Shown: piece after piece, positions 11,365-28,681 of the stretch
Position numbering within the stretch: position 1 is the stretch's first letter
Layout of the letters: each line of letters begins with the position of its first letter
Assembly: GCA_964646855.1 (NCBI GenBank)
Contig: CAZYHQ010000002.1
Coordinates: 9,127-73,126, forward strand
DNA length: 64,000 nt
Direction: 5' to 3'
From: an uncultured archaeon
Lineage (GTDB): Archaea; Aenigmatarchaeota; Aenigmatarchaeia; CG10238-14; SCSR01
The notes under the pieces: model-generated
Seen by the model: only the letters and a program-made list of their open reading frames with translations
Database searches by the model: none
What the model was told of the DNA's origin: nothing
Program-made: the position numbers and the translations under genes

Positions 11365-11952
11365 CTACACGTGAATCCCAGTTGCATGTTCCTCTCCACC
11401 ACAGCCGTCAGATAAATTCCAAACATCTGCTATCTGTGCAGAATTAAATCCATAATTTTTGATCAAATATTTAGCAAGACCCTCATACACATACCATCTC
11501 CAGCACATACAGCAGCAAGGCCCACCTTCATCCGACATTTTCATAGCTTCATCGTAAATTTTCTGCTCCTCAGATGTTAAAATTATACTGGTGTCATAAT
11601 TTAGTAATTCTTTTGCAAGACCCACAGTAATGTTGTAGGGATCTGTAGGAATTTTATCTATGTGCGAATATTTTTTCAATCCCTCAATTTGCTCATCGTA
11701 TCTGTGCAAGCTCATTTCGTCGCAACAAGATCCTTTCAAGGTTTCAGAATCAGATTTTCGTAAAACAGCATCCGGTCCGAAACAAAAAACATTTCCATTT
11801 GTGCTCAACTCTTCAAACCTTGCAACTATATTTTTATCTACGCCAGATATGGAAGCACTCTGACTAGTCTTATACGGTGCACCAACGAAAACAGAAATCA
11901 GTACAATTAATGAAACACTTACTGCTAAAATGTAAAAATAACTGTTTTTCAT
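11365..11952 (-). CDS. Membrane-anchored Cys-rich protein (PCC/CxC motif, possibly PCYCGC-family-like), paralog of 13148..13639
   Basis: N-terminal TM anchor, then motifs GSCCDE, GGPCCCMCWRW, YEGLAKYLIKNYG and SDGCGG. ATG 11952 (MKNSYFYIL) was chosen because it avoids overlap with the upstream gene. Confidence 0.65.
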   Translation of the reverse strand: MKNSYFYILAVSVSLIVLISVFVGAPYKTSQSASISGVDKNIVARFEELSTNGNVFCFGPDAVLRKSDSETLKGSCCDEMSLHRYDEQIEGLKKYSHIDKIPTDPYNITVGLAKELLNYDTSIILTSEEQKIYDEAMKMSDEGGPCCCMCWRWYVYEGLAKYLIKNYGFNSAQIADVWNLSDGCGGEEHATGIHV

Positions 11953-11959
11953 TTTTATT

Positions 11960-12715
11960 TCAAATCCCTTTATTTTCGGAATAAAAAATGTCAATTTTTC
12001 TTTTGACCGATTTCAAGTAAAAACTTGTTCCTTGTTCCTTCACGGTAAAACCATCTGCAAATTTTTCTTCTTTACTCGAATCATGATAGAATTTTACAAA
12101 AACTGAAAGCGGCGAGAAAAATCTTAGGATAGAAAAAGACAATTTTAGCAACGAACTTTTTCTTGCAATGTGTGCAATCTCGTGCAGCAAAACAGCTTCG
12201 AGCTCCTTTCTGTCAAGTACATCAAGCAAACCTACCGTGAAAAAGATTGCAGATTTAAAATTTCTGAAAGAGAACGCAGCAGGGATCGCTTTGTTCAGAG
12301 CATAGATTTTTGGGATCGGAAAATTTAATTTACTTGCATAACGCGTTACAATCTTCGTCATCCAGCTTATTTTTATTTCTCTGCTTTTGTTTGAAAAAAT
12401 ATAGTATGAAGGAATTACAATTGCGCCCACCAAAGTGCTCGCCAGAAAAGTAGTTGGCAAGGCCAGCAAAGTTAGACTTGTCAGATTGTTCTGACAAGGT
12501 GCGCACGCCACACTGCAGCCAACATTTGTTGTGAACAAGACAAACGGGAAAAACAGAAATGTAAGATGGCTGTAAATCAAAGCCAATTTGGTTTTCGTTC
12601 CGAAATTAGTACCTTTCAAAAAAATTAAAGTCACTATTGCGAGAAAGAAAGAGAAGACGGATAGCAGAACTTTGTCGTCAACCACTAATGGTATGCCAGC
12701 GAAGCAGCCAATCAT
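11960..12715 (-). CDS. BlaR1/MecR1-like M56 (M48-clan) zinc metallopeptidase without sensor domain
   Basis: 251 aa with N-terminal TM helices and the HExxH motif LLHEIAHIARK. A GCSVACAPC motif sits between TM helices. The ORF ends about 70 aa after HExxH. It overlaps the BlaI-like gene by 4 nt. Confidence 0.75.
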   Translation of the reverse strand: MIGCFAGIPLVVDDKVLLSVFSFFLAIVTLIFLKGTNFGTKTKLALIYSHLTFLFFPFVLFTTNVGCSVACAPCQNNLTSLTLLALPTTFLASTLVGAIVIPSYYIFSNKSREIKISWMTKIVTRYASKLNFPIPKIYALNKAIPAAFSFRNFKSAIFFTVGLLDVLDRKELEAVLLHEIAHIARKSSLLKLSFSILRFFSPLSVFVKFYHDSSKEEKFADGFTVKEQGTSFYLKSVKRKIDIFYSENKGI

Positions 12716-13089
12716 TTTTTCCTCCCTCTAAACCTTTCGTTAAAGTAAGTGACTGCTGCAGACCCGAAATCGTCGATCAACTTGTTTACAGTTTTTTCTA
12801 TTATGGACTGCTCTAAAGTAGCTTTAGAGAATTTTGGAAAATAAATGTAGTGCGCTCCCCCCCTCCCAACTTCTACCTTCCTCTCGACTATGCCTTTTTT
12901 GTGCAGCCTGTCCAAAATTACTGCGACACTCGTGAGCGCAACTTTCCTCCTCCGCTTTAAAATTTTGTGCAATTCCCTCACCCTTGATTGCTCCTTCTTC
13001 CAAAGAATTTCCAGAACATCGCACTCGAGGGGGCTTAGAAGAGACTTCACGCCGCTTTTATCGAAACTCATCTTGTTTACGCCAAGCAT
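12712..13089 (-). CDS. BlaI/MecI/CopY-family winged-helix transcriptional repressor
   Basis: 125 aa. LSPLECDVLEILWKK..RVRELHKIL......TSVAVILDRLHKKGIVERK matches the Penicillinase_R pattern. It is first in an operon with the M56 peptidase. Confidence 0.8.
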   Translation of the reverse strand: MLGVNKMSFDKSGVKSLLSPLECDVLEILWKKEQSRVRELHKILKRRRKVALTSVAVILDRLHKKGIVERKVEVGRGGAHYIYFPKFSKATLEQSIIEKTVNKLIDDFGSAAVTYFNERFRGRKK

Positions 13090-13147
13090 ATTTATTTAAA
13101 TATAGCTACCAGTATTTATAAGTATTACAAAATTTGTAAAGGATAGC

Positions 13148-13639
13148 ATGCAGCCCAAAAATGGAAATTTCATAGCGGCAATTGCAGTCGTTGTAGCAAT
13201 TTTCGTCGGGTTCCAAGTGTGGATTCTTTCCGGGGTTTACAGCGATCCTTATCAAGAGAAATTCGGTGCAGGACTTTTCGGTCTTGTAGATCATTCTGGA
13301 GTTAGCTCAAAATCTGGCATTGGCAAATACAGCAATCTTCCTCTTGGCGAAGATGGTTTCAACACAATGGTCGAATGGGACAAAACAATAACTTTAAGCG
13401 ACGAACAGAAAAAGCAATTTGCCGGGTTTAACACGAGATTGCCTTGCTGCGGTTTCGGTTTAACAACCGAGGACGAATTTAGCGACTGCAGATGCGGACA
13501 CCATCTTGCTTACGCCGGTTTGATTAAGTATGGTTTGACGAATGGTTGGGCGCGAGGGCAAATACAAGAAGAAATTGATCAATGGAAAACGGTATTTTAT
13601 CCAATCTGTTCGCAAAATCCAAAATTGTGTGATTTATGA
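13148..13639 (+). CDS. Membrane-anchored Cys-rich protein (PCC/CxC motif), paralog of 11365..11952
   Basis: 163 aa with an N-terminal TM anchor. Shares with the paralog the block WDKTITLSDEQKK...LPCCGFG...DCRCGHHLAYAGLIKYGLTNGW. Confidence 0.7.
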   Translation: MQPKNGNFIAAIAVVVAIFVGFQVWILSGVYSDPYQEKFGAGLFGLVDHSGVSSKSGIGKYSNLPLGEDGFNTMVEWDKTITLSDEQKKQFAGFNTRLPCCGFGLTTEDEFSDCRCGHHLAYAGLIKYGLTNGWARGQIQEEIDQWKTVFYPICSQNPKLCDL

Positions 13640-14151
13640 TGGGTAAATTAACATTAGGTTTGAAAATGCTGTTTAATGAAATGCGTTATGCCGCACTCAT
13701 TGTAATTTCTTCTGTAACCATTTCAATTTTGTTCATGTATTCGATGGGCGCGTTGTACCTAGATCCTTTATTTTTCAATTACTTTGAATTCTTTGAAGAC
13801 GGGTTGCTGAACATATCGTTGAATTTTGTTTATGTAACAATTGCGCCGATATTTGCGGGCATAACAGTTGCAAGCATTGTGTACAAGTTAGTAAACTTCA
13901 AAAAAAGTGTTTTCAAAGAAGGAAGCGCAGGATCTTTAGGTTTTGCATCTGCAGCTTTTGTAACAACATGCTCGAATTGCGTGCCTGTTGCATTATATTC
14001 TTTGGGGATAACGTATGGTTTATTTCAAGCAGCATTCGCTCCATTTGTTTTGCCGTTCAAACTTCTGACAATTGCAATAATATCTTTATCTTTTTATTTT
14101 GCCACAACTAGTTTAGGACAATTTTGTAAACTGAAAAAAACTCGGAGGTGA
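13636..14151 (+). CDS. Polytopic membrane protein with TM-embedded CSNC motif
   Basis: 171 aa with about 5 hydrophobic helices and GSAGSLGFASAAFVTTCSNCVPVAL. ATGA overlap with the upstream ORF. Confidence 0.6.
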   Translation: MMGKLTLGLKMLFNEMRYAALIVISSVTISILFMYSMGALYLDPLFFNYFEFFEDGLLNISLNFVYVTIAPIFAGITVASIVYKLVNFKKSVFKEGSAGSLGFASAAFVTTCSNCVPVALYSLGITYGLFQAAFAPFVLPFKLLTIAIISLSFYFATTSLGQFCKLKKTRR

Positions 14152-14155
14152 ATGA

Positions 14156-14332
14156 ATGAAATTTGATTTGACAATGGTAATGATAATTGCCGTGTTGGCC
14201 CTAGTTTCTGTCCAGACCATCCAACTTGTCGGGGTTATGTCAACAGTAAGCTCGCTGACTACAGGCAATTTGGCAACAGCAGCTACCGCTGCCAGCAGCT
14301 CACAGGCAATTTCAGGAATTGGTGGGTGCTAA
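14156..14332 (+). CDS. Small membrane peptide ending in Cys
   Basis: Absent from the ORF track (58 aa): MKFDLTMVMIIAVLALVSVQTIQLVGVMSTVSSLTTGNLATAATAASSSQAISGIGGC. A strong SD, GGAGGTGA, ends 5 nt before the ATG. Confidence 0.5.
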   Translation: MKFDLTMVMIIAVLALVSVQTIQLVGVMSTVSSLTTGNLATAATAASSSQAISGIGGC

Positions 14333-14370
14333 ATTTTTTTAGATGAAGCCAACTAAGGAGTCGAAAGATT

Positions 14371-15504
14371 TTGAAATCTATCAAGAAACACAAAGAGAAA
14401 GTTTTAGCAATAGAATTGAAGGATTTTGATTTGAAGAGAATCATTCTCTTGATACTTACAGTCATATTGATTGTAGAAGTTCTTGTTACGTTCAATATCA
14501 ACACAACAATATTCAACAAACTCCGCCCCTCGAATCTGGAACTCATTCGTGTCGTTGACTCTTCTTGCTCGGATTGTCTTAACATAGACACAATTTCTTC
14601 AAAAATCCAGGACCAAAATGTAAAAATCTTGTCGGACAAGACTTTGGAAAGAAACTCTGCAGAAGCACAACAGATTATAAACAAATACGGATTAAAGAGG
14701 GTTCCAGTACTTTTGGTTTCCGGCGAAATAAGCAGAGACGAAAATCTAAAAAGCTCTTTCATCCAACTCGGCGGCATGATGACTCAGGATGTCATCCTTA
14801 TCGAAACCGAACCACCTTACGTGGACTTGTCTATGGAAGAAGTCAGGGGAAGAATTGCAATTACGAATATTATTGACAGTTCCTGCGACCTTTGCAGCAG
14901 CTTTGACGGCTTTGTCAGTACACTCGAAAATAATGGAGTTAGGATAACAGAAAGGAAGACACTCGAATATACTGCCACCGAAGCCAAAGATTTGATAAGC
15001 AAATTTTCAGTCCAAAAAATTCCAGCGATTGTCCTGTCGGCGGACATAGTCGAATACAAATTTGTCCAGAGTTTCTGGTCTCAGCTGAACGCCACAGAAA
15101 AATCTGGATTTTTCGCGCTGCACACAACCACACCACCTTACAGGAACACTTCAACAAACAAAATAGACGGGTTGGTTACCCTGTATACAATTACTGATGA
15201 CAGCTGCGCAAATTGTTACAACGCTTCCGTCCACAAACAAATTTTGCTCAGCTTCGGCATCAAACCGCAAAAGGAGTCAGTGATAGATATTTCTTCGCCG
15301 AGCGGCAAGGAAATCACAATCAAGTACAACATAACAAAAGTGCCTACGATTATGCTTTCGCCTGATGCGTCTCTGTATTCGTCTCTTGTGCAAATATGGC
15401 CTACAGTCGGTACAGTGGACAAGGACGGCTGGTTCGTTTTCAGAAATGTAGAAATAATGGGAACATACAAAGATTTGTCTAGTGGTAAAATTGTTGCCGG
15501 CTAA
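14371..15504 (+). CDS. Membrane-anchored protein with three tandem thioredoxin-fold CxxC modules
   Basis: 377 aa with a TM anchor. Three repeats of about 95 aa each carry D-S-C-x-x-C (SSCSDC, SSCDLC, DSCANC), a cis-Pro-like (V/I)P (KRVPVLLVS, QKIPAIVLS, TKVPTIMLS), and the first two end in PPY. TTG start is preceded by AAGGAG. Confidence 0.75.
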   Translation: MKSIKKHKEKVLAIELKDFDLKRIILLILTVILIVEVLVTFNINTTIFNKLRPSNLELIRVVDSSCSDCLNIDTISSKIQDQNVKILSDKTLERNSAEAQQIINKYGLKRVPVLLVSGEISRDENLKSSFIQLGGMMTQDVILIETEPPYVDLSMEEVRGRIAITNIIDSSCDLCSSFDGFVSTLENNGVRITERKTLEYTATEAKDLISKFSVQKIPAIVLSADIVEYKFVQSFWSQLNATEKSGFFALHTTTPPYRNTSTNKIDGLVTLYTITDDSCANCYNASVHKQILLSFGIKPQKESVIDISSPSGKEITIKYNITKVPTIMLSPDASLYSSLVQIWPTVGTVDKDGWFVFRNVEIMGTYKDLSSGKIVAG

Positions 15505-16099
15505 ATACAGGATTATTGCTCTGCTTGCAGCAGTAATCATAATCTCTGGTGCAGTTTATTCAAACATGTCGGCGAAAGACGCAACTCAAAAAACAAAGCA
15601 AAGTACTTTATCCACGATTACAGCCCTTGTGAGTATAAGCCAGCACAGGATACTCACACCTTCAGACTTTTCTGAACTTTCAAAAATGGTTGAAGGAGAC
15701 GCCATTGCTTCCAAGCAAGTGAAATATGCAATATGGTTTTCAGAGAACGGTATAGCAGAACACATGTCCCACAAGCTAGGAGACTTGTACAATTATATCG
15801 ATAAGGGCCAATACGAAGTTTGCATACCGCACGAAGTAGAACATATTCTGGATTACATAACGCTTGGGGATTCAGAAAAGCTAAAGGAAACTTTAGATGT
15901 TATCGATGACAATTACCAAGGGTGGTTCTCGAAATCATATTCTTTGAAACAGCAATATCCAAATACGTATGCCGCCTTGGACCAAGTCGTACTTGCAATA
16001 AATTCTGCCCTGACAAAACTAAAAAATGAAAATTACCAGATAGCTGCAGAAGTCGGTTTTATCAAAGGCTACAGCGAGCTTGGCTGTTCAGGTTTGTAA
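15482..16099 (+). CDS. Membrane-anchored hypothetical protein (His-containing helical ectodomain)
   Basis: 205 aa with an N-terminal TM anchor and motifs EHMSH and IPHEVEH. No family recognised. GTG start overlaps the upstream gene by 23 nt. Confidence 0.5.
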   Translation: MVKLLPAKYRIIALLAAVIIISGAVYSNMSAKDATQKTKQSTLSTITALVSISQHRILTPSDFSELSKMVEGDAIASKQVKYAIWFSENGIAEHMSHKLGDLYNYIDKGQYEVCIPHEVEHILDYITLGDSEKLKETLDVIDDNYQGWFSKSYSLKQQYPNTYAALDQVVLAINSALTKLKNENYQIAAEVGFIKGYSELGCSGL

Positions 16100-16144
16100 T
16101 CACAAAGAATAAATACTAACTTTTACAAATCTTGTAAAGGTAAA

Positions 16145-16744
16145 ATGCAAACTAAAATAAAAAAGACGCATTTTGCAATAATTGTTGTCGCTTTAGTCGT
16201 CTTGGTTGCAGCATCGGGATACTTTTTGTTAAATCCGTTTGGGACTTCTGGCGACGTGTTTTCTGCGAAAAGTTCACCTGCTTCTACTGGCGTAAGTCAG
16301 TCCTCATCCAAGGGCTTGTCGCCAGGCAACAAGGCACCAGATTTTGAGGTTACTACTGTTGACGGCAAAAAAATAAGTTTGGCTTCCCTAATCCAACAGA
16401 AGAAACCTTTTGTTTTATATTTTTTTGCAAGCTGGTGCCCATTTTGTACTGATGAGCTGACTAGACTGAAAGGCATCTACCCGGATTATCAGGATAAAGT
16501 AGGATTCGTTGCGGTGGATTTAGATTTGCAGGAAACTGAAGAAACAGTGACCAAATACAAGCTTTCGCACCAGTTTTTGGGCGACTTCGCTGCTGGCAAC
16601 AGGGACATATTGATAAATTACATGGTCATTGCAACCACAACAAAATATTTCATTGACAGCGACGGAGTTATTCTTACAAAGGGTTCGGGGGAAATTTCAG
16701 ATGCCCAGTGGAAGGCGCTGTTCCAAGATTTGGTAAACTTGTGA
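16145..16744 (+). CDS. TlpA/ResA-like membrane-anchored thiol-disulfide oxidoreductase
   Basis: 199 aa with a TM anchor and the redoxin-fold motif FVLYFFASWCPFCTDE. Confidence 0.85.
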   Translation: MQTKIKKTHFAIIVVALVVLVAASGYFLLNPFGTSGDVFSAKSSPASTGVSQSSSKGLSPGNKAPDFEVTTVDGKKISLASLIQQKKPFVLYFFASWCPFCTDELTRLKGIYPDYQDKVGFVAVDLDLQETEETVTKYKLSHQFLGDFAAGNRDILINYMVIATTTKYFIDSDGVILTKGSGEISDAQWKALFQDLVNL

Positions 16745-16748
16745 TTGT

Positions 16749-17432
16749 ATGGTAGATTTTGTACTGCTGTCATTAGCTCTAGCAGCCGGGGCTGCAGCCT
16801 TTTTTAATCCGTGCGGATTTGCAGTTCTGCCTGCTTACATTTCAAATTATTTTTCAAAATCTCAAAAGAAAAGTTCTCCAGCGAAAAGTCTTTTCAGTGG
16901 TGTTTCAGTCGGTGTCATAGCAACTTTAGGTTTTATTTTTCTTTTTGTAATCCTTGGAATGCTGCTGAAATTTGTAAGTCGGGATATCGGAAATTATATC
17001 CCGTGGATTGATTTTGTTCTAGGGCTGGTTTTAATTGGATTTGGATTACTGTTGATAGTCGGTAGGGGTTTTGGTTTTACAGTTCCAGTAAGATCCTTGC
17101 CTTTAGAAAACAATTTCTCCTTTTTCCAATACGGAATTGTTTATGGTCTAGCATCTTTAGGATGCACTCTGCCGATCTTCTTGTCTGTCGCATTCGGCTC
17201 GCTGGCCGCAACTTTTGTTGAAGGAATTTTCATGTTTTTTGCCTATGCTATAGGAATGAGTCTACCGTTTATTGCAGTCACGATCGCTACAGTTCTGTCT
17301 AAAGATATTTTCGTCAGCAAACTGCAGTCTTATCTTAAGTATATGAAAACAATCAATGCAATCATACTGATTTTCGTCGGTCTTTATTTGATTTACTTCC
17401 AACTAAATGCTGGTTTGTTGGTTAGAGTATGA
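16749..17432 (+). CDS. ccdA: CcdA/DsbD-family transmembrane thiol-disulfide electron transporter
   Basis: 227 aa, polytopic. The two conserved TM cysteines lie in FFNPCGFAVLPAYI and LASLGCTLPIFL. Confidence 0.85.
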   Translation: MVDFVLLSLALAAGAAAFFNPCGFAVLPAYISNYFSKSQKKSSPAKSLFSGVSVGVIATLGFIFLFVILGMLLKFVSRDIGNYIPWIDFVLGLVLIGFGLLLIVGRGFGFTVPVRSLPLENNFSFFQYGIVYGLASLGCTLPIFLSVAFGSLAATFVEGIFMFFAYAIGMSLPFIAVTIATVLSKDIFVSKLQSYLKYMKTINAIILIFVGLYLIYFQLNAGLLVRV

Positions 17433-17481
17433 AAATAAAACCAAAATAAGGCAATAAATATTTAAAAATAAAAGTGATTAC

Positions 17482-18150
17482 ATGGAAAAAGCTGAATGCA
17501 AACATTGCGGAAAAAAGTTCGACTCATCAAGATCTTTAGAGCAGCATATAGCAGCTAAACATTCTGGCACCTACCAGTCAGCGAAAGTTGTCAAGAAAAA
17601 ATTTACATACAAGAGTTTGATTTTGTATGCAATAATTTCTTCGATAGCTGGCATTGGAATTTACGGCATTATCTGGGCTGTAACTTCGCCAAGTCAGATT
17701 GGTCCCATAGGATCCACACACATACATGCAGACATAGCAGTTTTTCTTGACGGAAGGCAGATAACTCCGTTTGGTCCGCAATACTACGTGCGAGCCAGCC
17801 ATGTTCATGTCGAATCTGGCCCTGGGGAAGGTACTGTGATCCACATACATGCAACTGGTGTGCCATTGGGAAACTTCTTCAGCACTTTGGGAATGAAGTT
17901 TAACAAAGACTGCTTTGTTAGTGACAACAAAGTTAATTACTGCAATTCTGATAGCAAAACTTTGAAAATGTTTGTAAAGCATGAAGGCGGCAATTGGACA
18001 CAAAACTTTGATTATGATAAATATGTGTTTACCGATTTGGACAAAATTTTAGTAACATACGGAGGCGAAACTCCAGACCAATTAGAATTGCATATGAACG
18101 CAGTTACGGATTTCTCGAAGGACAATTCAGGTAGAAAAATGCCCGTGTGA
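17482..18150 (+). CDS. C2H2 zinc finger - TM helix - His-rich ectodomain protein
   Basis: 222 aa. N-terminal CKHCGKKFDSSRSLEQHIAAKH (Cx2Cx12Hx4H), one TM helix, then an ectodomain with THIHADIAVF and HVHVESG..GTVIHIHATG. Confidence 0.6.
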   Translation: MEKAECKHCGKKFDSSRSLEQHIAAKHSGTYQSAKVVKKKFTYKSLILYAIISSIAGIGIYGIIWAVTSPSQIGPIGSTHIHADIAVFLDGRQITPFGPQYYVRASHVHVESGPGEGTVIHIHATGVPLGNFFSTLGMKFNKDCFVSDNKVNYCNSDSKTLKMFVKHEGGNWTQNFDYDKYVFTDLDKILVTYGGETPDQLELHMNAVTDFSKDNSGRKMPV

Positions 18151-18154
18151 TTTG

Positions 18155-18289
18155 ATGCAAGATCCAGTTTGTAAAATGGAAGTTGGTGAGGCAGGAATTA
18201 AAGCAGAGCATAAAGACAAAACTTATTATTTTTGCAGCGAAAACTGCAAAGCAGAATTTTTGATCAATCCGAAAAAATTCGCGAAGTGA
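18155..18289 (+). CDS. YHS/TRASH-domain metal-binding mini-protein
   Basis: Absent from the ORF track (44 aa): MQDPVCKMEVGEAGIKAEHKDKTYYFCSENCKAEFLINPKKFAK. The pattern matches the N-terminus of the CopA at 22488 (DPVCGM...YFCSEVC). Confidence 0.7.
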   Translation: MQDPVCKMEVGEAGIKAEHKDKTYYFCSENCKAEFLINPKKFAK

Positions 18290-18292
18290 GAT

Positions 18293-18835: not shown

Positions 18836-18870
18836 CTTATAAATAGTCTTCGTTTGTTATATCTAATTGT

Positions 18871-21666: not shown

Positions 21667-22037
21667 AGAAAGTAACATACGCAATAACTATTTTAGTTAT
21701 TGCGGTAGTAACGATTGCATATTACTTATTTTCACAATCTGCAAGCGGGCTAGGGAAGTACGATGATTTTGCAAAATGTATCACTGAAAAAGGGATAGTT
21801 GTTTACGGCGCATACTGGTGCCCGCACTGTTTGAATCAAAAAAACATATTTGGTAGCAGTTGGAAATACGTTGACTACGTTGAGTGCGACCCGAAGGGTA
21901 TAAATGCAAACCTGCAACTCTGCCAAGAAAAGGGAATCAGCGGATACCCAACCTGGGATATCGGCGGTAGACAATACGCAGGTGAACTAACTTTGTCTAG
22001 TTTGGCGAAACTTTCCGGCTGCAGCCTGCCAAAATAA
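21654..22037 (+). CDS. Membrane-anchored thioredoxin-like protein of the type fused to bacterial VKOR
   Basis: 127 aa with a TM anchor. YGAYWCPHCLNQKNIFG...YVECDPKG...LCQEKGISGYPTW.IGG matches the Trx-like domain appended to cyanobacterial VKOR homologs. Confidence 0.75.
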   Translation: MSQMKKVTYAITILVIAVVTIAYYLFSQSASGLGKYDDFAKCITEKGIVVYGAYWCPHCLNQKNIFGSSWKYVDYVECDPKGINANLQLCQEKGISGYPTWDIGGRQYAGELTLSSLAKLSGCSLPK

Positions 22038-22133: not shown

Positions 22134-22445
22134 TTATTTCATTTTAGAAAGGCTGATTCCTGCTCTGGCCGTATGCTCATTCCCAATCGCCCATTTCTTC
22201 AGATTTTCGTACGAAGTTGCCCCGCAAATCCACTTTCCTGTTCGCTTGTTGAAGAAAAACGGGACCCCGCCGCAGAAGTCTTTGTCGAATTCCATCATCG
22301 TTTCAGCGTTTTTTTCGTTGTGCCAGACTTCAAGTTTTTGCACTTTCAATCCTATTTCTGATTCTAGCTTTTGAACAAGTGGATCCATATCGTGGCAGTG
22401 AGGACACTCTGTTCCGTAGAATTCTAACAAATCACTTTCAAGCAT
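22134..22445 (-). CDS. Thioredoxin-fold protein (CPHC)
   Basis: 103 aa: EFYGTECPHCHDM ... GGVPFFFN (cis-Pro), a glutaredoxin/thioredoxin_3-like small protein. Confidence 0.8.
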   Translation of the reverse strand: MLESDLLEFYGTECPHCHDMDPLVQKLESEIGLKVQKLEVWHNEKNAETMMEFDKDFCGGVPFFFNKRTGKWICGATSYENLKKWAIGNEHTARAGISLSKMK

Positions 22446-22487
22446 ACTTATTCTTTGTTTTTATAAAATAAATGTTGTGTATAATTT

Positions 22488-24554
22488 ATGGCAACCGATC
22501 CTGTTTGTGGAATGCACGTTGATGAAAAGAAAGCAGTGTTCAAAAAAGAAGTTGATGGTAAGACAGTATATTTCTGCAGCGAGGTTTGCTTGAGGACTTT
22601 TGAAAAACCTGAAGCTGAGTTGAAAAGATTAAAACTTTTAGTAATTTTGGGTGCAATAATTTCTATTCCGACTATTGCGCTCTCCTTTTTTATAAAAATC
22701 CCTTACAACAATTTTGTTTTGTTAATTTTGTCGGCTCCTGTCCAATTCTATGCAGGCTGGAGATTTTACAAAGGTACGTTTGATGCGCTGAAAGCAAAAT
22801 ACGCGAATATGGATACACTAATTGCAACAGGCACAACAGCAGCCTGGCTTTATAGTACAGCAGTGACTTTCTTTCCAACAATAATTCAAGGCGAAACTTA
22901 CTTTGACGTTTCTGTAATAATTGTGACTTTGATTTTGTTCGGCCGTTATCTCGAAGACATCGCAAAGGGCAAAGCATCTTCTGCAATCAAACGACTGATG
23001 GGTCTACAACCAAAAACAGCAACAGTCATTCGCGCAGGAAAAGAAATCGAAGTCCAGATAGAGGATTTAAAAGTTGGGGATATCGTAGTTGTCAAACCTG
23101 GTGAAAGAATTCCGGTTGATGGTATTGTTGTTGAAGGGCATTCCTCGGTTGACGAATCAGCAATTACTGGAGAGAGCATGCCTGTTGGCAAAAAAATCGG
23201 TGACGAAGTTATCGGAGCTACTATCAATAAATCTGGTTTGCTAAAATTCAAAACGACAAAAGTTGGTAAGGATACAGTTCTGTCGCAAATAATACAAATA
23301 GTCCAGCAAGCATTGACAACCAAAGCACCAATTCAGCGTCTGGCAGACAAAGTGTCATCCTATTTTGTACCAGCTGTAATTTTAGTTGCACTAGCTTCTT
23401 TCTTCTTATGGTTCTATTTGACTGGTTTCAACTTTTTGTTCGCTCTAACAATTACGATTGCAATCTTGATCATTGCCTGCCCGTGTGCTTTAGGAATAGC
23501 AACACCAACTGCGATTCTTATTGGAACAGGACTGGGAGCAGAAAGCGGGATTCTAATCAAAGGTGGAGAGGCTTTGGAAACCACGCACAAACTTACAACT
23601 GTTGTTTTTGACAAGACTGGCACTCTAACAAAAGGTCAACCATCAGTCACAGATGTGATACCTGTTGGAGTCGAACAGAAGGAAGCTCTGATGCTTGCAG
23701 CTGTAGCTGAAAAAGGATCTGAACACCCGATTGGTGAAGCAATAGTAAAACGTGCAGAAGAACTGAAAATAAAATTAGCAAATGTAAAGAACTACGAAAC
23801 AATTGCAGGCAAAGGGATAAAAACAAAATATCTGAACAAAATAATTTTGGTAGGAAATAGGGAATTCATAAAGGAAAACAAAATCGATGCAGAAAAAATT
23901 GAGAGCACGCTGCAAAAATTAGAAGGGGAAGGAAAAACTGCAGTTATCGTTTCGTTCGGAGGCGTAGTCAAAGGTGTCATTGCAGTTGCGGATACGCTGA
24001 AGAAGTTTTCAAAGGAAGCAGTAGAGGAGCTGCACAAAATGGGTAAAGAGGTTATTATGATTACTGGTGACAACGAAAGAACTGCCGACGCGATCGCAAA
24101 GCAAGTTGGTATCGATAGAGTTTTTGCACGAGTTCTGCCCGGTGAGAAAGCGAGCATTGTCAAGAAATTGCAGGAAGAGAAAAAAATTGTTGCAACTGTC
24201 GGCGACGGCATTAACGATGCACCAATGCTTGCTCAAGCCGATGTCGGGATTGCCATAGGCAGCGGTACGGATGTAGCATTGGAAACTGGGAAAATAGTTT
24301 TGATAAAAAATGATTTGCGGGATGTGGTTACTGCAATAGATTTGAGCAAATTCACAATAAACAAAATAAAACAGAATTTATTTTTGGCTTTTGTTTACAA
24401 TGTTGCAGGCATACCGATTGCTGCTGGTCTGCTTTATCCTTTCTTCGGATTCCTGTTGAGTCCGATAATTGCCGGAGCGGCCATGGCTTTCAGCTCTGTT
24501 TCTGTTGTAGGCAACTCACTGCTGATGAAAAGATATAAACCCAAATTGCGTTAG
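22488..24554 (+). CDS. copA: Copper-translocating P1B-type ATPase with N-terminal YHS/TRASH domain
   Basis: 688 aa. N-terminus [12 protein letters not shown]...YFCSEVC, TM CPC motif ([13 protein letters not shown]), [18 protein letters not shown]. Confidence 0.95.
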
Positions 24555-24561
24555 TGGATTT

Positions 24562-24846
24562 ATGCTCGACAAAAAAACTGTTTTGAAGGCTTTGGAGAGG
24601 GTGACAGATCCGGAGGTAAACGTTTCTATAACAGAAATGCAGTTGGTAGACAAAGTTGAAATCGACAAGGGAAATGTTTTTGTCGAATTCCATGTCACAA
24701 CCCCAGCCTGCCCTCCTGTTTTTGCAGTAAAGCTTGCAATGGATGTGAAGGACGCAGTTTCTAAACTTGAAGGAGTGAAAGCAGTAAAGCTGAAAGTCAC
24801 TGGCCACTACATGACAGATTTCATCAACAAAGAAGTAAACAAATAA
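24562..24846 (+). CDS. DUF59/MIP18 (SufT-like) Fe-S assembly domain protein
   Basis: 94 aa: VTDPEVNVSITEMQLV ... TTPACP, typical of the DUF59 family. Confidence 0.75.
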   Translation: MLDKKTVLKALERVTDPEVNVSITEMQLVDKVEIDKGNVFVEFHVTTPACPPVFAVKLAMDVKDAVSKLEGVKAVKLKVTGHYMTDFINKEVNK

Positions 24847-25116
24847 TTATTTTATCTCAAACTTATCGTAATCACCACGAACTTTTTCCTCTTTCAATTC
24901 GATTTTGTCAACTCTTGACATTTCTGGTCCTTGCTTGCAAAATTCAACAATTTGGTTCACTTCTGCATCATTTCCCTCTGCCAAAATTTCCACAGTCCCG
25001 TCAAAATTATTTTTTGCAAAGCCCCTTACCCCCAACCTGTCAGCAAGCTCCTTTGCGGAATAGCGGAAGAAAACTCCTTGGACCTTTCCGAAAACTTTTA
25101 TCCTTACTCTCTTCAT
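24847..25116 (-). CDS. acyP: Acylphosphatase
   Basis: 89 aa: VFGKVQGVFFRYSAKELADRLGVRGFAKNNFDGTVEI matches the acylphosphatase signature (V.G.VQGV.FR...G..G...N..DG.V). Confidence 0.9.
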   Translation of the reverse strand: MKRVRIKVFGKVQGVFFRYSAKELADRLGVRGFAKNNFDGTVEILAEGNDAEVNQIVEFCKQGPEMSRVDKIELKEEKVRGDYDKFEIK

Positions 25117-25153
25117 AATTCGTTACTGATGACCGAAAGCCTTAAATACTTAT

Positions 25154-25189
25154 ATATGAATTTAATTTCATATGAAATTAAATTCATAT
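25154..25189. promoter_or_regulatory. 36-bp perfect palindrome (putative ArsR-family operator)
   Basis: ATATGAATTTAATTTCAT|ATGAAATTAAATTCATAT was verified base by base. Its symmetry centre (25171/25172) coincides with the annotated ATG of the ArsR-family gene, in the divergent intergenic region shared with acyP. Confidence 0.6.
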
Positions 25190-25489
25190 GTTTTGTTTGT
25201 TAGGGCATTCGGGAGTCCCTTAAGATTGCAAATTCTTGAAGTGTTAAAGAAATCGCCTAAATCTGTAACGCAAATTTGTGATGAACTGGGAGTCGAACAA
25301 AGCAAGATTTCTCATAACTTAAGATGTCTTGTAGATTGCGGTTTTGTGAAAAACAAGAAGGAAGGTAGGAAGCGAGTTTATTCTTTAAATAAAGAAACGG
25401 TTTTCCCGTTGATGAAAATCATAGATAGACACATCGACAAATACAAAGACCATTTAGTTGCTTGTGGTGTGATAAAGGAGGTTGTATAA
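25172..25489 (+). CDS. ArsR/SmtB-family metalloregulator
   Basis: 105 aa: FGSPLRLQILEVLKKSPKSVTQICDELGVEQSKISHNLRCLVDCGFV (wHTH) with C-terminal Cys residues. It lies immediately upstream of merA. Confidence 0.85.
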   Translation: MKLNSYVLFVRAFGSPLRLQILEVLKKSPKSVTQICDELGVEQSKISHNLRCLVDCGFVKNKKEGRKRVYSLNKETVFPLMKIIDRHIDKYKDHLVACGVIKEVV

Positions 25490-25570
25490 ATGAAAACGAA
25501 AACATTGTGTGGCAATGAGGGAGAAGGCGGTTGTTCTCCATTCGTTCCAGATAATTTTAAAAAAATGTGA
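25490..25570 (+). CDS. Mini-ORF with Cys pair, in frame with merA across a TGA
   Basis: Absent from the ORF track (26 aa): MKTKTLCGNEGEGGCSPFVPDNFKKM. The strong SD AAGGAGGT ends 7 nt before the ATG. Its TGA stop (25568-70) is in the same frame as the merA ORF. Confidence 0.4.
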   Translation: MKTKTLCGNEGEGGCSPFVPDNFKKM

Positions 25571-25600
25571 GGTGAAAAAATTATACAAGAAAAATTTGAC

Positions 25601-27001
25601 TTGATAATTCTAGGACAAGGGTCAGCTGCTTTCGCCGCAGCGATAAAAGCAAATGATTTGGGAATAAAAACAGCTATGGTTGGAGGCAATGCAACTCCTG
25701 GCACAGTTATTGGTGGAACTTGTGTTAATGTCGGTTGCATGCCGAGCAAAAATCTGATCACAGTAGGAACTCTCTACTATCATGCTATGAACAATTCTTT
25801 TGAAGGCATTAAATACGAGAAAGGAAGGCTCAATTTCAAGAAAGTTATTGAACAAAAAGATAGGCTAGTAAAGAAATTCAGAAAAGAAAAATATGCTAAT
25901 GTTATAAAAAGCTTAGAGAATGTCACCCACTACGAAGGTAGAGGAAAGTTCGTTTCGAAAAACGAAGTAAAAGTTGGAAATAAAGTTTTGCTCGGAGGAA
26001 AATTTGTAATTGCAACGGGTGCGCGAGCACACATTTTACCGATAAAAGGAATTGAAAAGATTGGTTATCTGACGAACGAAGAAGCTTTGGATTTGAAAGA
26101 ATTACCGAAGTCCATGTGTGTGATCGGTGGGCGTGCGTTGGGTTTGGAATTCGCACAGATGTACGCACAATTCGGAACGAAAGTTACTGTTTTGCAGCGT
26201 AGTGAAAGAATATTACCAGAAGACGAACCGGAAATTTCTTTAGCACTTACACGATACCTCGAAGAAATAGGAATAAAAATTCATACCAACACTTCAATAA
26301 ATTTCGTTGCTAAGAAAAGTAAAAATAAGATAATCAACTTCACTACTGGCGGTCGGACGAAAGAAATTGTATGTGAACAACTTCTATTAGCTACTGGTAG
26401 AAAACCCAACACTGAATATCTTGACTTGGAAAAAGTTGCAGTGAAAACTAATGAGAAAGGTTTTATTCTGGTTAACAACGAAATGCAAACATCTACTTCG
26501 CATATTCGGGCTGCTGGAGATGTGATCGGCGAGCCTATGCTTGAAACCATAGCAGCAAAAGAAGGGGCTGTTGCCGTGGAAAACACATTCACCAAAAATA
26601 AAAAGAAAATTAATTTTACAGAAGTACCAAGTGCCGTTTTCACCTATCCTGAAGTCGCTCGCGTTGGACTGACGGATGCCGAGGCTGTCAAACAAGGCAT
26701 AAGATGTAATTGTGGAGTTCTGCCGTTAGAATTAGTTCCAAAAGCGCATGTTATCGGCGATACGAGAGGGCTAGTAAAAATCGTAGCCAACAATGATACA
26801 AAACAGATATTAGGTGTGCACATATTGGCTCCGCATGCCGCAGACTTGATACACGAGGGAGTACTTGCAGTTAAAAATAAACTCACCATTGATGATATAA
26901 TCGACACTGTTCACATTTTCCCCACATTATCGGAAGCTATTAAATTAGCTGCACAGTCATTCTACAAGGACGTAAGTAAATTAAGTTGTTGTATCGAGTG
27001 A
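25601..27001 (+). CDS. merA: Mercuric reductase core (no NmerA domain)
   Basis: Redox-active GGTCVNVGCMPSK, FAD and NAD(P) Rossmann motifs, and a C-terminal vicinal Cys pair (KDVSKLSCCIE) diagnostic of MerA. The start is uncertain: TTG 25601 truncates the KFDLIILGQGSAAF strand (see finding). Confidence 0.85.
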   Translation: MIILGQGSAAFAAAIKANDLGIKTAMVGGNATPGTVIGGTCVNVGCMPSKNLITVGTLYYHAMNNSFEGIKYEKGRLNFKKVIEQKDRLVKKFRKEKYANVIKSLENVTHYEGRGKFVSKNEVKVGNKVLLGGKFVIATGARAHILPIKGIEKIGYLTNEEALDLKELPKSMCVIGGRALGLEFAQMYAQFGTKVTVLQRSERILPEDEPEISLALTRYLEEIGIKIHTNTSINFVAKKSKNKIINFTTGGRTKEIVCEQLLLATGRKPNTEYLDLEKVAVKTNEKGFILVNNEMQTSTSHIRAAGDVIGEPMLETIAAKEGAVAVENTFTKNKKKINFTEVPSAVFTYPEVARVGLTDAEAVKQGIRCNCGVLPLELVPKAHVIGDTRGLVKIVANNDTKQILGVHILAPHAADLIHEGVLAVKNKLTIDDIIDTVHIFPTLSEAIKLAAQSFYKDVSKLSCCIE

Positions 27002-27006
27002 TATGA

Positions 27007-27165
27007 ATGGTAAAAAGAATAGCACATGAAGGGGTAAATTATTTTGCATGCAACATCTGCGATTTCAGATATGCAGATAAAAAAACCGCAGAGGAGTGCG
27101 AAAATTATTGCAGAACTCACAAGAGCTGTTCGATGGAAATCACGAAGCATGCCGTGAAGATTTAA
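27007..27165 (+). CDS. Small Cys-rich zinc-ribbon-like protein
   Basis: Absent from the ORF track (52 aa): MVKRIAHEGVNYFACNICDFRYADKKTAEECENYCRTHKSCSMEITKHAVKI (CxxC...CxxxC...C). It begins 6 nt after the merA stop. Confidence 0.5.
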   Translation: MVKRIAHEGVNYFACNICDFRYADKKTAEECENYCRTHKSCSMEITKHAVKI

Positions 27166-27197
27166 ATTGTAAATAGCGAATAAATAAAAGAGGCTGT

Positions 27198-27449
27198 TTG
27201 ATGACCAAAGTAACTGTGGTTTACACAAAGACATGCCAGTATTGTCCAATTGCTAAGACATTGTGGAAAAGTTTGCAGAAACAACTGAAATTCGATTACG
27301 AAGAGGTTGACGCGGTTTCTACCAAAGGCCAACAGCTGGTGGCAAAATTCGGCATAATGGCTGTGCCGACAACGATAATCAATGACGGCAAAGATGTCAT
27401 CGTAGGCGTGCCGTCAAAAGAAAAAGCGATTGCAGCTGTGAGCAAGTGA
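27198..27449 (+). CDS. Small thioredoxin/glutaredoxin-like protein (CQYC)
   Basis: 83 aa: VVYTKTCQYCPIAK ... MAVPTTIIND, a thioredoxin fold with cis-Pro. Confidence 0.8.
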   Translation: MMTKVTVVYTKTCQYCPIAKTLWKSLQKQLKFDYEEVDAVSTKGQQLVAKFGIMAVPTTIINDGKDVIVGVPSKEKAIAAVSK

Positions 27450-27453
27450 TGAA

Positions 27454-27585
27454 ATGGCGGAAGAAGTTAAACATGTCGGTGAAAAAACCCAGCTAATTTT
27501 CGAGTGTGCAGTCTGCAAAAAAATTTACAAGCAGCCTGGCATGTGTGCCGAGTGCCAATTAATTCTAAAGCCCAAGGGCGGTTGA
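27454..27585 (+). CDS. Small CxxC...CxxC zinc-ribbon protein
   Basis: Absent from the ORF track (43 aa): MAEEVKHVGEKTQLIFECAVCKKIYKQPGMCAECQLILKPKGG. Confidence 0.4.
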   Translation: MAEEVKHVGEKTQLIFECAVCKKIYKQPGMCAECQLILKPKGG

Positions 27586-27589
27586 TCGA

Positions 27590-28681
27590 TTGCAGCAATT
27601 GTTAGAGAAACCAAAAGACATAGAAGAAATTAGTAGCGAAACTGTTCAAACTACTGTTCAAATTCAGCCTGCAGAAGAAGAGAAAGATGTATACGACACA
27701 ATAATCGTAGGCGGCGCCGGAGCAGCACTGACAGCAGCAATTTACGCTGCACGACGTGCGATGAAGACTTTAGTCGTAATGAAGGGATTGGGAGGGCAAG
27801 CTGCTATGACTGACCAGATTGAAAATTATCCAGGTTTTCTTAATGTCGGTGGCCTGCCACTGATGCAGAGATTTTTGAAACAAGCAACAAAATCCGGCGC
27901 CGAAGTTCTTACAGGTTTGGAAGTAAAAGAAATTATAGAAGAGAAGGGAACCGACGGCAAGCCAGAATTTATTGTGAAAGCCGACTCGTCAGAGTACAGG
28001 GCGAAAACTGTAATACTTTCATTTGGAAAAACTCCGAGAAATTTGGATGTTCCTGGTGAGGACAAATTCGGGAACAAGGGAGTCTCCTACTGTGCCACCT
28101 GCGACTTGCCGTTGTTTGCGAATAAAACTGTTGCTGTTGTAGGCGGAGGAAATTCTGCTCTCGATGCCGCAACTTATGCGTCAAAAATTTGCAAAAAAGT
28201 CTACCTCATTCATAGGCGAGACGAATTTCGTGGGTTCGAATATTTGATTGAAAGGGCAAAGACTGATCCAAAAATCGAAATTCTGTACAGCAATGTTGTA
28301 AAAGAAATAAAAGGCGAAGTCAAGGTCCATTCGGTCGTTGTGCAAGATTTGAAAACAAATCAGACGAAAGAAATTTCTGTAGAGGGGGTTTTCGTCGAAG
28401 TTGGCTCTATCGCAAAAACGGACTTTATAAAAAGCTTGGTCAAGCTGGATAATATCGGACAGGTAATCATAAGCAGAAATTGTGAAACGTTTTATCCAGA
28501 CAAAGATGAAATCCGTCCCGGAATATTCGCTGCAGGCGACTTGACAACCACACCTTTCAAGCAGATTGTTGTTTCAGCCGGCGAAGGTTGCATTGCTGCC
28601 CTGCAGGCGTATAATTATCTACATGAACTACAACCTACTTTTGTTGCGGACTGGGTTGCAAAGAAACATGTCAAGAAATAA
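27590..28681 (+). CDS. trxB: Thioredoxin-disulfide reductase with acidic N-terminal extension
   Basis: 363 aa with GGAGAA FAD motif, redox CATCD, and GGGNSALD NADPH motif. TTG start, and an extension of about 35 aa (QPAEEEKDVYD) precedes the Rossmann fold. Confidence 0.9.
   Translation: MQQLLEKPKDIEEISSETVQTTVQIQPAEEEKDVYDTIIVGGAGAALTAAIYAARRAMKTLVVMKGLGGQAAMTDQIENYPGFLNVGGLPLMQRFLKQATKSGAEVLTGLEVKEIIEEKGTDGKPEFIVKADSSEYRAKTVILSFGKTPRNLDVPGEDKFGNKGVSYCATCDLPLFANKTVAVVGGGNSALDAATYASKICKKVYLIHRRDEFRGFEYLIERAKTDPKIEILYSNVVKEIKGEVKVHSVVVQDLKTNQTKEISVEGVFVEVGSIAKTDFIKSLVKLDNIGQVIISRNCETFYPDKDEIRPGIFAAGDLTTTPFKQIVVSAGEGCIAALQAYNYLHELQPTFVADWVAKKHVKK

Follow-up and report, generated by a model that had tools for sequence, protein, structure and literature searches.

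Positions 11365-28681 of a 64,000-nucleotide stretch of DNA from an uncultured archaeon of the Aenigmatarchaeota (the whole stretch is referred to as the window) were found to carry a four-part gene core that recurs in DPANN archaea and in some bacteria of the candidate phyla radiation (CPR). The core consists of a Cys-rich ectodomain named PCC, a remotely MerT-like membrane domain with a CxxC motif (CSNC in the window), a small anchored protein ending in -VGGC (the tail protein), and an anchored protein of three thioredoxin (Trx) domains, referred to as 3x Trx. In the window the core stands among further thiol-redox and metal genes. The region as a whole is a group of modules that tend to gather, and not one transcription unit or one machine. 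All open reading frames (ORFs) of the region were listed and scanned against Pfam and NCBIfam.

The closest relatives of the window's proteins belonged to DPANN archaea (Aenigmatarchaeota, Woesearchaeota, Pacearchaeota, Micrarchaeota and Nanoarchaeota). Eighty related loci, anchored on the 3x Trx gene and extending up to 10 kb to each side of it, were taken from species-representative genomes. The 31 window proteins were searched against these loci by tblastn, and iterated hidden Markov models (HMMs) were then run on the ORFs of the loci. With the iterated profile searches, the PCC, CSNC and tail families rose to 61-64 loci each. In 36 of the 43 loci whose flanks reached 3 kb or more to either side of the 3x Trx gene, PCC and the tail were located within 3 kb of that gene. 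When a reciprocal test was started from two previously unused fusion proteins, the same neighbours appeared. The usual order in archaeal loci was PCC/CSNC, tail, 3x Trx, while in several CPR loci a fusion gene was located downstream of the 3x Trx gene.

This fusion gene joins PCC and a CSNC-type membrane domain in one protein of 400-470 residues, and it was present in 23 loci. The positions conserved in the fusion family are a CPxC, a later CxxC and C..CCG.P...C.C.H. A database search with the fusion alignment yielded at least 293 clusters, all of them labelled 'hypothetical' and free of Pfam domains. The family is rare, since an exhaustive profile search returned 542 clusters among 1.84 billion representatives.

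The PCC domain is a Cys5-His ectodomain with the conserved pattern CC..C.C.H; its assignment to PCYCGC or to DUF411/CopG was tried and rejected, as no match was obtained. Of the two PCC proteins in the window, PCC-B is followed directly by the CSNC gene, and PCC-A, the last gene of a BlaI-M48-PCC-A unit, is 80% identical to its copy in a sister genome. In the CSNC family the CxxC is nearly invariant. The scans of all ORFs and of typical relatives gave no Pfam or NCBIfam match for PCC (PCC-A included), CSNC, the tail peptide, the CHWLC and CPLC membrane proteins or the ectodomain of the His protein. For the core parts other than Trx, no relative was found in Pfam, NCBIfam or the PDB.

The membrane domain was compared with MerT by hhalign, using a MerT query 100% identical to annotated merT genes. 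The CSNC family reached a probability of 85% and the PCC-CSNC fusions one of 71%, against 2-3% for negative controls run with the CcdA family. The CSNC and CHWLC families were related to each other at 90%, and CHWLC to MerT at 5%; CHxxC is conserved in the CHWLC family. The alignment of the CSNC family and the fusions to MerT spans its helix-1 Cys pair, its hairpin and its cytoplasmic Cys pair. No match at threshold was obtained for the CSNC and CHWLC proteins of the window with the curated MerT, MerC, MerE or MerF models, and relatives gave weak matches below threshold (MerT, 0.01, 2/27; MerE, 5e-5, 1/27; MerTP, 0.021). The link between CSNC and MerT thus appears to be a remote architectural relationship and not family membership.

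An AlphaFold model of the PCC-CSNC fusion (mean predicted local distance difference test score, pLDDT, 78.5) has five membrane helices. From the order of the helices and the distribution of charge we infer that helix 3 bears the CPxC at its outer end, that the CxxC following helix 4 faces the cytoplasm, and that PCC is outside the cell. When this model was compared with the PDB by Foldseek, no match better than E 0.15 was obtained.

The tail protein is the most distinctive element of the core; the sequence-only reading had overlooked it, as it had the PCC/CSNC fusions. Sixty-seven short homologues were found in the related loci, of which 61 end in VGGC and 4 in GGCG. They share an N-terminal helix with a QT(I/V)QL motif, a Ser/Ala-rich linker and the nearly invariant C-terminus ...LP(S/G)MVGGC. 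The window protein, of 58 amino acids (aa), ends in GIGGC and is 93% identical to the copy in the sister genome. The stop codons that follow the terminal Cys are mixed (TAA 37, TAG 16, TGA 13), and the Cys is therefore the true C-terminus of the protein. Read-through of a recoded stop, with selenocysteine or pyrrolysine, was rejected because the stops are mixed and the downstream frames closed; an in-frame fusion of the 58-aa ORF to the 3x Trx gene was rejected as well, since the frames differ. In locus L069 a single protein combines the -GGC tail with PCC. The -VGGC end loosely resembles a lipobox, so that a lipid might conceivably be attached to the terminal Cys. A gene for prolipoprotein diacylglyceryl transferase (LGT) was seen directly upstream of the PCC-CSNC fusion gene in L087 and L088 (5041-5808).

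In 3x Trx, the three CxxC motifs and the three cis-Pro residues were invariant in 20 sequences, and its relatives extend across DPANN and some CPR. It matched TIGR02187, the model of the archaeal protein disulfide oxidoreductase (PDO), at 31.8 bits, compared to a cutoff of 185. Archaeal PDO is cytoplasmic and has two Trx units, whereas 3x Trx has three units and an N-terminal anchor, and it was accordingly not assigned to PDO. Some relatives of about 460 aa (P0013, P0017 and P0021; also in L020) carry a C-terminal cupredoxin domain matching Cupredoxin_1, Copper-bind and Cu-oxidase_2. Judged from these domain matches, the fusion would physically tie the 3x Trx protein to a copper centre. Cupredoxin and DUF411 were also seen as neighbours of the core in relatives.

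The sequence-only reading of this DNA had named homologues scattered in related genomes and unconserved Cys motifs as findings that would speak against it. Neither was observed. Homologues were present in at least 5 of the 80 loci for 16 of 30 region genes, compared to 4 of 53 control genes. The controls were putative genes from other parts of the window; their median number of loci was 0, and the four that reached 5 loci were a cupredoxin and SUF genes. The homologues were co-localised across DPANN phyla and some CPR bacteria. The motifs of 3x Trx, PCC, CSNC and CHWLC were conserved, as were four His residues of the His protein. The 205-aa ORF had a homologue in none of the 80 loci. Some loci with the module (L050, L052, L079-L081, L045, L048, L060, L061, L073, L075) are labelled Gammaproteobacteria or Methanosarcinales in the records, and their module proteins resemble the CPR or DPANN versions. 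Either these bin labels are unreliable or the module may reach past DPANN and CPR.

In the sister genome (77% identity) positions 11365-21666 are retained, with the small ORFs included at 71-93% identity. The sister locus lacks TlpA, CcdA, the 150-aa ORF, the VKOR-type (WCPHC) Trx, CopA, ArsR, MerA, DUF7128 and TrxR. There an extra gene of 255 aa (L083:6211-6978), which is not in the window, separates PCC-A from the RNase P RNA region. The region had been read as one integrated 17-kb machine; since the sister genome keeps only part of it, and since it holds three regulators and two palindromic boxes, this view was given up. A genomic island was ruled out by the flat GC and tetranucleotide profiles, which showed no anomaly compared to the rest of the window, together with a left border common to the sister genome.

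The BlaI-family protein matched Penicillinase_R at 60.2 bits (cutoff 22.6). The protease beside it, whose gene overlaps that of BlaI by 4 nt, matched M48 at 50.3 bits with the motif HEIAH, and M56 at 20.2 bits against a cutoff of 31. It ends about 40 residues past the protease domain, and the penicillin-binding sensor domain is absent. A C-x3-C-x-P-C motif, semi-conserved in 22 homologues, is located in a membrane or loop segment. The 125-aa BlaI has no CopY-type CxC...CxC, its C-terminal half being free of Cys. M48 protease and BlaI genes adjoin in about 20 loci. The pair is a variant of BlaI/BlaR1 that lacks the sensor for penicillin.

Two identical copies of a perfect palindrome, TTACAA-N3-TTGTAA, were located, one in the divergent BlaI/PCC-B intergenic region and one 8 nt upstream of the TlpA-like gene. 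No further perfect copy was present in the 64-kb window, for which the chance expectation is 0.48 even with one mismatch. Across the 1.13 Mb of related loci the core box TACAA-N3-TTGTA was found only 12 times, and at least 8 of the 12 boxes were directly upstream of PCC, CSNC or BlaI genes. TACA/TGTA palindromes are the binding sites of BlaI, MecI and CopY, and BlaI loses its activity through proteolysis (PMC7253601). The 17 ORFs of the same-strand run 13636-22037, described earlier as suggesting co-transcription, were confirmed with spacings of -23 to +63 nt; as the PCC-B and CSNC genes share 4 nt, the run really has 18. The boxes upstream of 13148 and 16145 point to at least two regulated promoters inside this run. 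A scan for sigma-70 promoters and terminators gave nothing above shuffled sequences and says little about an archaeon. Besides BlaI, the region's regulators are a membrane-bound protein with a winged helix-turn-helix (wHTH) and ArsR.

Several accessory genes could be assigned with the help of their relatives. The TlpA-like protein matched AhpC-TSA (66 bits) and Redoxin (44.8 bits), and with its WCPFC motif and N-terminal helix it is of the TlpA/ResA type. The CcdA-like protein of the window alone misses PF02683 (DsbD_TM), which 21 of 26 relatives match (best E 1.6e-18); C22 and C139 are invariant, and the protein was placed in the DsbD_TM family. The WCPHC Trx is close to the Trx domain of the VKOR of the cyanobacterium Synechococcus (3kp8, E 2e-23), and no region ORF matched a VKOR or DsbB domain in the family scans. 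H80, H82, H109 and H121 are invariant in the His protein, some relatives of which have an outer CxxCGM motif in place of the cytoplasmic zinc finger. Its AlphaFold2 model (pLDDT 86) gave weak beta-grasp/DUF4430-like matches; the beta-grasp matches (transcobalamin C-domain, 3u7z; E 0.07-0.09) were too weak to be taken as an assignment. When the CHWLC and His-protein profiles were run against PDB sequences, only a zinc finger or noise appeared.

On the cytoplasmic side, MerA matched TIGR02053 at 548.2 bits (cutoff 454.45). It carries the redox motif GGTCVNVGCMPSK (CVNVGC) and ends in ...KLSCCIE; its relatives in L005 and L022 end in CC. By these features it is a true mercuric reductase core. Full-length MerA was found in L005, between the His protein and CHWLC (6660-8090), and in L022, where the order is CHWLC, Trx, ArsR, MerA; a C-terminal fragment was seen where the L013 contig ends. 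The MerA of the window is 75% identical to that of L005, compared to 42% for 3x Trx, which suggests a recent lateral transfer of merA among DPANN. CopA matched TIGR01511 at 625 bits (cutoff 397); ACPCALG and FDKTGTLT are present, and the N-terminal domain is YHS, not HMA. The trio of DUF7128, Trx and TrxR also occurs in L003. L047 (15094-15477) encodes a DUF7128 domain joined in one protein to a membrane segment of two helices, which carries a Cys-Cys pair (GLCCSP) followed by a further Cys. This MerF/MerT-like arrangement supports a putative metal-handling role of the DUF7128 mini-protein that follows MerA.

Every component named in the sequence-only reading was present at the position given for it (Table 1). 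Two-thirds of the region had been called unassignable, but the ORFs without a family match amount to 14 of 31 and about 35% of the bases (56% inside 13636-22037). Nearly every ORF had also been said to be a thiol or metal component; this was confirmed for the components themselves but not for FeS_assembly_P and the acylphosphatase, which are passengers. No Pfam or NCBIfam match was obtained for the 205-, 150-, 134- and 76-aa ORFs, each scanned with typical relatives, nor any significant family match for the 53-aa Cys4 mini-protein. Because the iterated HMM built on the 76-aa ORF had drifted to membrane proteins, its result was discarded. In the right-hand block (22134-28681) and the rest of the region together 31 ORFs were scanned, and 30 genes were counted in the recurrence test.

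Table 1. Features of the region, with its left neighbour and a second metal/iron-sulfur neighbourhood of the window. The last two columns give the number of the 80 related loci with a homologue.
Feature	Positions	Strand	Basis or remark	tblastn	Iterated HMM
RNase P RNA, archaeal	11040-11328	-	left neighbour of region
PCC-A, anchored exported Cys-rich protein, divergent PCC-domain paralogue	11365-11994	-	aligns to PCC domain of fusion family
BlaR1-like membrane zinc protease (HEIAH)	11960-12715	-	Peptidase_M48 E 3e-13	19
BlaI/MecI-family winged-helix repressor, 125 aa	12712-13089	-	Penicillinase_R	17
Palindrome TTACAAAATTTGTAA, putative BlaI operator	13125-13139	.	divergent BlaI/PCC-B intergenic region
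PCC-B, anchored extracytoplasmic Cys-rich domain (CC...C.C.H)	13148-13639	+	family by iterated HMM	15	61
CSNC polytopic membrane protein	13636-14151	+	remotely MerT-like Cys-pair hairpin, two extra helices before it
58-aa small anchored protein, Ser/Ala linker, C-terminal ...GIGGC	14156-14332	+	member of -VGGC tail family
3x Trx, membrane-anchored, domains CSDC, CDLC, CANC	14371-15504	+	Thioredoxin_3 above cutoff
205-aa anchored helical protein, lineage-specific	15482-16099	+	78% identity to sister genome copy
Second palindrome TTACAAATCTTGTAA	16123-16137	.	8 nt upstream of TlpA-like gene
TlpA/ResA-like anchored thiol-disulfide reductase (WCPFC)	16145-16744	+	AhpC-TSA, Redoxin above cutoffs
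Divergent CcdA/DsbD-TM family membrane electron conduit	16749-17432	+	via DsbD_TM matches of relatives	18	up to 23
His protein: cytoplasmic C2H2 finger, one transmembrane helix, extracytoplasmic His-rich domain	17482-18150	+	conserved His	33	41
Free YHS/TRASH mini-protein, candidate cytoplasmic metallochaperone	18152-18289	+	YHS E 2e-13; sister genome 82% identity	9
Exported Met/His-rich protein, C-terminal anchor	18293-18835	+	Met/His motifs conserved in 14 homologues	9	14
Membrane-bound wHTH regulator (DUF7343/MarR_2), Cys pair in outer loop	18871-19368	+	loop Cys conserved in 21 sequences	11	19
150-aa anchored protein	19432-19884	+	PCC paralogue at same position in sister genome
53-aa Cys4 (TRASH-like) mini-protein	19881-20042	+	sister genome 81% identity
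CPLC polytopic membrane protein	20051-20581	+	invariant AHCPLCT
134-aa soluble helical protein	20582-20986	+	after CPLC also in L039, L064 and sister genome
CHWLC four-helix membrane protein, CHxxC and Cys after helix 2	21017-21439	+	related to CSNC family	18	19
76-aa anchored His/Cys protein	21436-21666	+	sister genome 71% identity
Anchored thioredoxin, VKOR-partner type (WCPHC)	21654-22037	+	3kp8/3kp9 E 2e-23	11
Cytoplasmic thioredoxin (CPHC)	22134-22445	-	Thioredoxin 25.2 bits, cutoff 23.5
YHS-CopA, copper-type P1B ATPase with N-terminal YHS/TRASH	22488-24554	+	TIGR01511, TIGR01525 far above cutoffs; YHS E 1e-11	17 (range near core given as 15-17)
FeS_assembly_P	24562-24846		passenger, neither thiol nor metal component
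Acylphosphatase	24847-25116		passenger, neither thiol nor metal component
ArsR-family regulator	25172-25489	+	directly upstream of MerA; HTH_5 E 2e-15	11	22
Mercuric reductase core MerA, no NmerA	25601-27001	+	TIGR02053
DUF7128-like Cys-rich mini-protein	27007-27165	+	weak DUF7128 match; adjoins ArsR, CopA or CHWLC in 11 loci	10
Small thioredoxin/glutaredoxin-like protein (CQYC)	27198-27449	+	Thioredoxin_3 E 5e-13
43-aa Cys4 mini-protein, putative gene (ORF only)	27454-27585	+	no homologue found in scans or 80 loci
Low-molecular-weight thioredoxin reductase-like flavoprotein TrxR (CATC)	27590-28681	+	TIGR01292 314 bits, just under cutoff 343	8
ZIP-type transporter with His run	46409-47521
Exported cupredoxin-like protein	47574-48371
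Exported cupredoxin-like protein	48376-48822		H...C-x4-H-x4-M ligands
Rieske-like small protein	49597-49902	-
SUF operon	SufC-like 50370, SufB/D-like 51126 and 52551, SufS-like 53771, SufU-like 54994

Taking the gene identities, conserved motifs, fusions, synteny and boxes as observed, we propose that the region serves in defence against thiophilic metals and thiol stress, with BlaI/BlaR1-like control, outside-to-inside cysteine relays, repair by Trx-fold proteins and Cop/Mer detoxification; in our judgement the chances of this proposal are even. Module 1 (11365-16099) is the local copy of the core conserved in DPANN and some CPR. Its M48 protease, with the Cys triad, would sense a thiol-reactive signal outside the cell and remove BlaI from the TACA-N5-TGTA boxes, a step that we infer, along with the direction and the cargo of the relay. 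Under this control would stand PCC, the MerT-like membrane protein, the tethered -GGC thiol peptide and the triple Trx. The tail thiol and the PCC domain may bind a soft ligand outside the cell. Through ligand exchange this would reach the Cys pair in the membrane and then, in most relatives, the cytoplasmic CxxC. The triple Trx would keep the relay thiols reduced and mend the wrong disulfides formed by metal catalysis.

Module 2 (16145-17432), TlpA and CcdA with the second copy of the box, would import reducing power from the cytoplasmic TrxR/Trx. Module 3 (17482-22037) would supply His-rich and Met-rich outer binders, CHWLC and perhaps CPLC as MerT-like membrane proteins, the membrane-bound regulator, TRASH/YHS mini-proteins and a DsbA-like Trx. 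At the cytoplasmic end, in module 4 (22134-28681), CopA would export Cu(I) and MerA, controlled by ArsR, would reduce Hg(II). The TRASH/YHS and DUF7128 mini-proteins may act as chaperones that pass the metal to MerA or CopA, while TlpA and the VKOR-type Trx would keep outer thiols reduced or mend wrong disulfides with electrons that come from TrxR/Trx through CcdA.

Several observations weigh against the proposal of metal defence. Since MerA is missing from the vicinity in most related loci, the core cannot serve generally to import mercury, and import of copper for its detoxification would be unusual. The core occurs with or without adjacent metal genes, and it also fits general protein folding. 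The similarity to MerT is remote, lies under every curated cutoff and spans one hairpin only; moreover, the window protein has CSNC and not CPxC, with only one cytoplasmic Cys. No structural relatives were found for the PCC and His domains in the PDB comparisons, so metal binding is read from their residues only. The right-hand module, finally, is non-syntenic in the sister genome.

Instead of defence, the core may provide a general, quinone-independent route of oxidative folding or isomerisation for organisms without respiratory chains, which we consider rather unlikely. The membrane CxxC and PCC would then generate or relay disulfides as an analogue of DsbB, VKOR or DsbD, the -GGC end would be a glutathione-like or carrier thiol, and the triple Trx would be PDI-like; the metal genes would adjoin simply because these thiols are also targets of copper and mercury. 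Such a role agrees with the core's invariant partner, a three-domain Trx in which all CxxC are conserved, with CcdA, TlpA, VKOR-type Trx and TrxR recurring nearby, with the lack of a detectable VKOR/DsbB domain among the region ORFs, and with the presence of the core in 36 of 43 loci regardless of metal genes. Patescibacteria and DPANN are without electron transport chains (PMC7507113). DsbB, VKOR and MauE are all missing from about 20% of bacterial species, and undiscovered pathways are therefore expected (bioRxiv 10.64898/2026.03.05.709764). The cupredoxins fused to 3x Trx could serve as electron acceptor. Control by a sensor protease and a repressor, seen in about one-third of the loci, is not expected for a housekeeping system, the membrane domain is MerT-like and not DsbB-, VKOR- or DsbD-like, and such a role would not explain why metal binders and exporters are so strongly enriched in the surroundings. 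It is unlikely, though a thought worth stating, that the core is a new kind of extracytoplasmic cysteine relay common to DPANN and CPR, in which the tail would be a swinging-arm carrier or a tethered thiol buffer, disulfides would be made or exchanged at the cell surface independently of quinones, and the copper centres of cupredoxins would perhaps be the electron sink.

The cupredoxin domains that are fused to 3x Trx or adjoin it in relatives, the two exported cupredoxin-like proteins of the window (47574-48822) and the TlpA-like protein can also be read as a system of copper acquisition and of maturation of extracellular copper proteins, similar to Sco, PCuAC and TlpA, in which the binders would load cupredoxins and the Trx proteins would keep the ligand Cys reduced. 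We regard this as quite improbable. The ATPase is of the exporter type, MerA, ArsR and BlaI-type stress regulation indicate detoxification, no Sco or PCuAC homologue appeared in the family scans of the region, and cupredoxin neighbours were present in only about 12 of 80 loci. That there is no functional unit at all, with unrelated membrane genes and common redox and metal genes side by side in a small gene-dense genome, is most improbable. The right-hand third is non-syntenic in the sister genome, the 205-, 150-, 134- and 43-aa ORFs are without relatives outside the genus, and the two passengers are unrelated, all of which would be in line with chance. Against it stand family recurrence far above that of control genes, domain fusions, a gene order kept across phyla and two domains of life, and operator boxes common to related loci. 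For 11365-21666, chance clustering is already largely refuted by synteny, fusions and operators.

We compared the region with known systems. Like Mer systems (MerP-MerT/MerC/MerF-MerA, and in the archaeon Saccharolobus an ArsR-type merR with the TRASH protein MerH), it has a MerA core with a C-terminal CC under ArsR, free TRASH/YHS mini-proteins, membrane proteins with a helix Cys pair and a cytoplasmic Cys or pair whose profile remotely resembles the MerT hairpin, and an exported Cys-rich binder that, on the pattern of MerTP, adjoins the membrane protein or forms one chain with it. It differs from them in having CxxC in place of CC and two extra N-terminal helices, and in a binder that is the new PCC domain and not a ferredoxin-like MerP/HMA fold. 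The core is mostly without MerA, all curated Mer transporter models stayed under threshold, and the -VGGC tail peptide and the triple Trx occur in no mer operon.

As in ScsABCD and DsbC/DsbD, envelope Trx-fold proteins are tied here to copper stress, and a conduit of the CcdA/ScsB/DsbD class with a TlpA-like partner would carry electrons from cytoplasmic thioredoxin. In Scs systems copper stress is tied to disulfide isomerases of the Trx fold, ScsC among them, which bind Cu(I) as well (PMC8900818, PMC5524982). Homologues of ScsA, ScsB or ScsC were not seen in the region, where no search was aimed at Scs models, and the likeness is a functional one. Here one anchored chain holds three active Trx domains, in contrast to an oligomer; PCC, CSNC and the tail peptide have no Scs counterpart, and the hosts have no periplasm bounded by an outer membrane.

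The regulator pair shares with BlaI/BlaR1 (MecI/MecR1) and CopY/CopR a Penicillinase_R repressor beside a membrane HExxH protease, and TACA...TGTA palindromes in a divergent promoter (PMC7253601). Unlike BlaR1, the window protease has no penicillin sensor, is M48 rather than M56 and carries the Cys triad instead; unlike CopY, the repressor is without CxC motifs (as defined in PMC7253601). The half-sites are spaced by 5 nt here, and not by 2 nt.

To our knowledge, the GGCGG arm of SoxY is the only analogue of the tail peptide, both having Gly-Gly-Cys at a flexible C-terminus. The C-terminal Cys of SoxY carries substrate covalently between enzymes (PMC6067878, PMC5336275). The tail protein differs in being a membrane helix with a low-complexity linker and no SoxY fold, and in ending in the Cys itself in 61 of 67 cases. 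No SoxZ, SoxAX, SoxB or other Sox genes were present in the loci, and the context is one of Trx and metals, not of sulfur oxidation. With VKOR-Trx and DsbB-DsbA systems the region shares the WCPHC Trx, close to a VKOR-fused Trx domain, and membrane proteins with an outer-face CxxC beside Trx-fold partners; it differs in having no VKOR/DsbB domain, and its hosts are thought to be without quinones (PMC7507113). For CPR, Méheust et al. 2019 (PMC6744442) report only an MdbA-like oxidoreductase next to VKOR.

The region had earlier been called undescribed. This stands for the core and does not hold for the periphery, as CopA, ArsR-MerA, Trx/TrxR and CcdA-TlpA are known. No description of the module was found in the literature on the core motifs or on disulfide systems of DPANN and CPR. 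The core joins a known fold, that of Trx, with three families that carry no annotation, and there is a real chance that it is categorically new.

A second metal and iron-sulfur neighbourhood was observed in the window at 46409-55377, and its genes are included in Table 1. Three putative tRNA genes were also noted, all on the minus strand. At 61888-61977 ARAGORN called a 90-nt tRNA with anticodon CTA ('tRNA-Pyl'), and Rfam confirmed a tRNA. Its anticodon arm measures 26 nt compared to 9 in the model, which indicates an intron of about 17 nt, so that the anticodon call may be an artefact; a true amber-reading tRNA is conceivable. A 99-nt, probably intron-containing tRNA at 55906-56004 was found by Rfam alone, in disagreement with ARAGORN, and a tRNA-Arg(TCG) at 59334-59420 by ARAGORN alone, in disagreement with Rfam. 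GC content was raised (0.46-0.48, compared to about 0.40) at 1-3000 and 39000-42500 of the window; the latter stretch coincides with an ORF of 1061 aa (39296-42481, minus strand).

DPANN and CPR make up a large share of microbial diversity and live attached to other cells, without respiratory chains or quinones. In them the module is conserved and apparently regulated, is built of families without annotation, and includes a small protein with an invariant C-terminal Cys arm. The core can be cloned in about 1.9 kb where the membrane and ectodomain genes are fused, and in about 2.3 kb in the window. It is a candidate for a new metal-thiolate relay or a new route of oxidative folding, and the module exemplifies sharing between ultra-small archaea and ultra-small bacteria.

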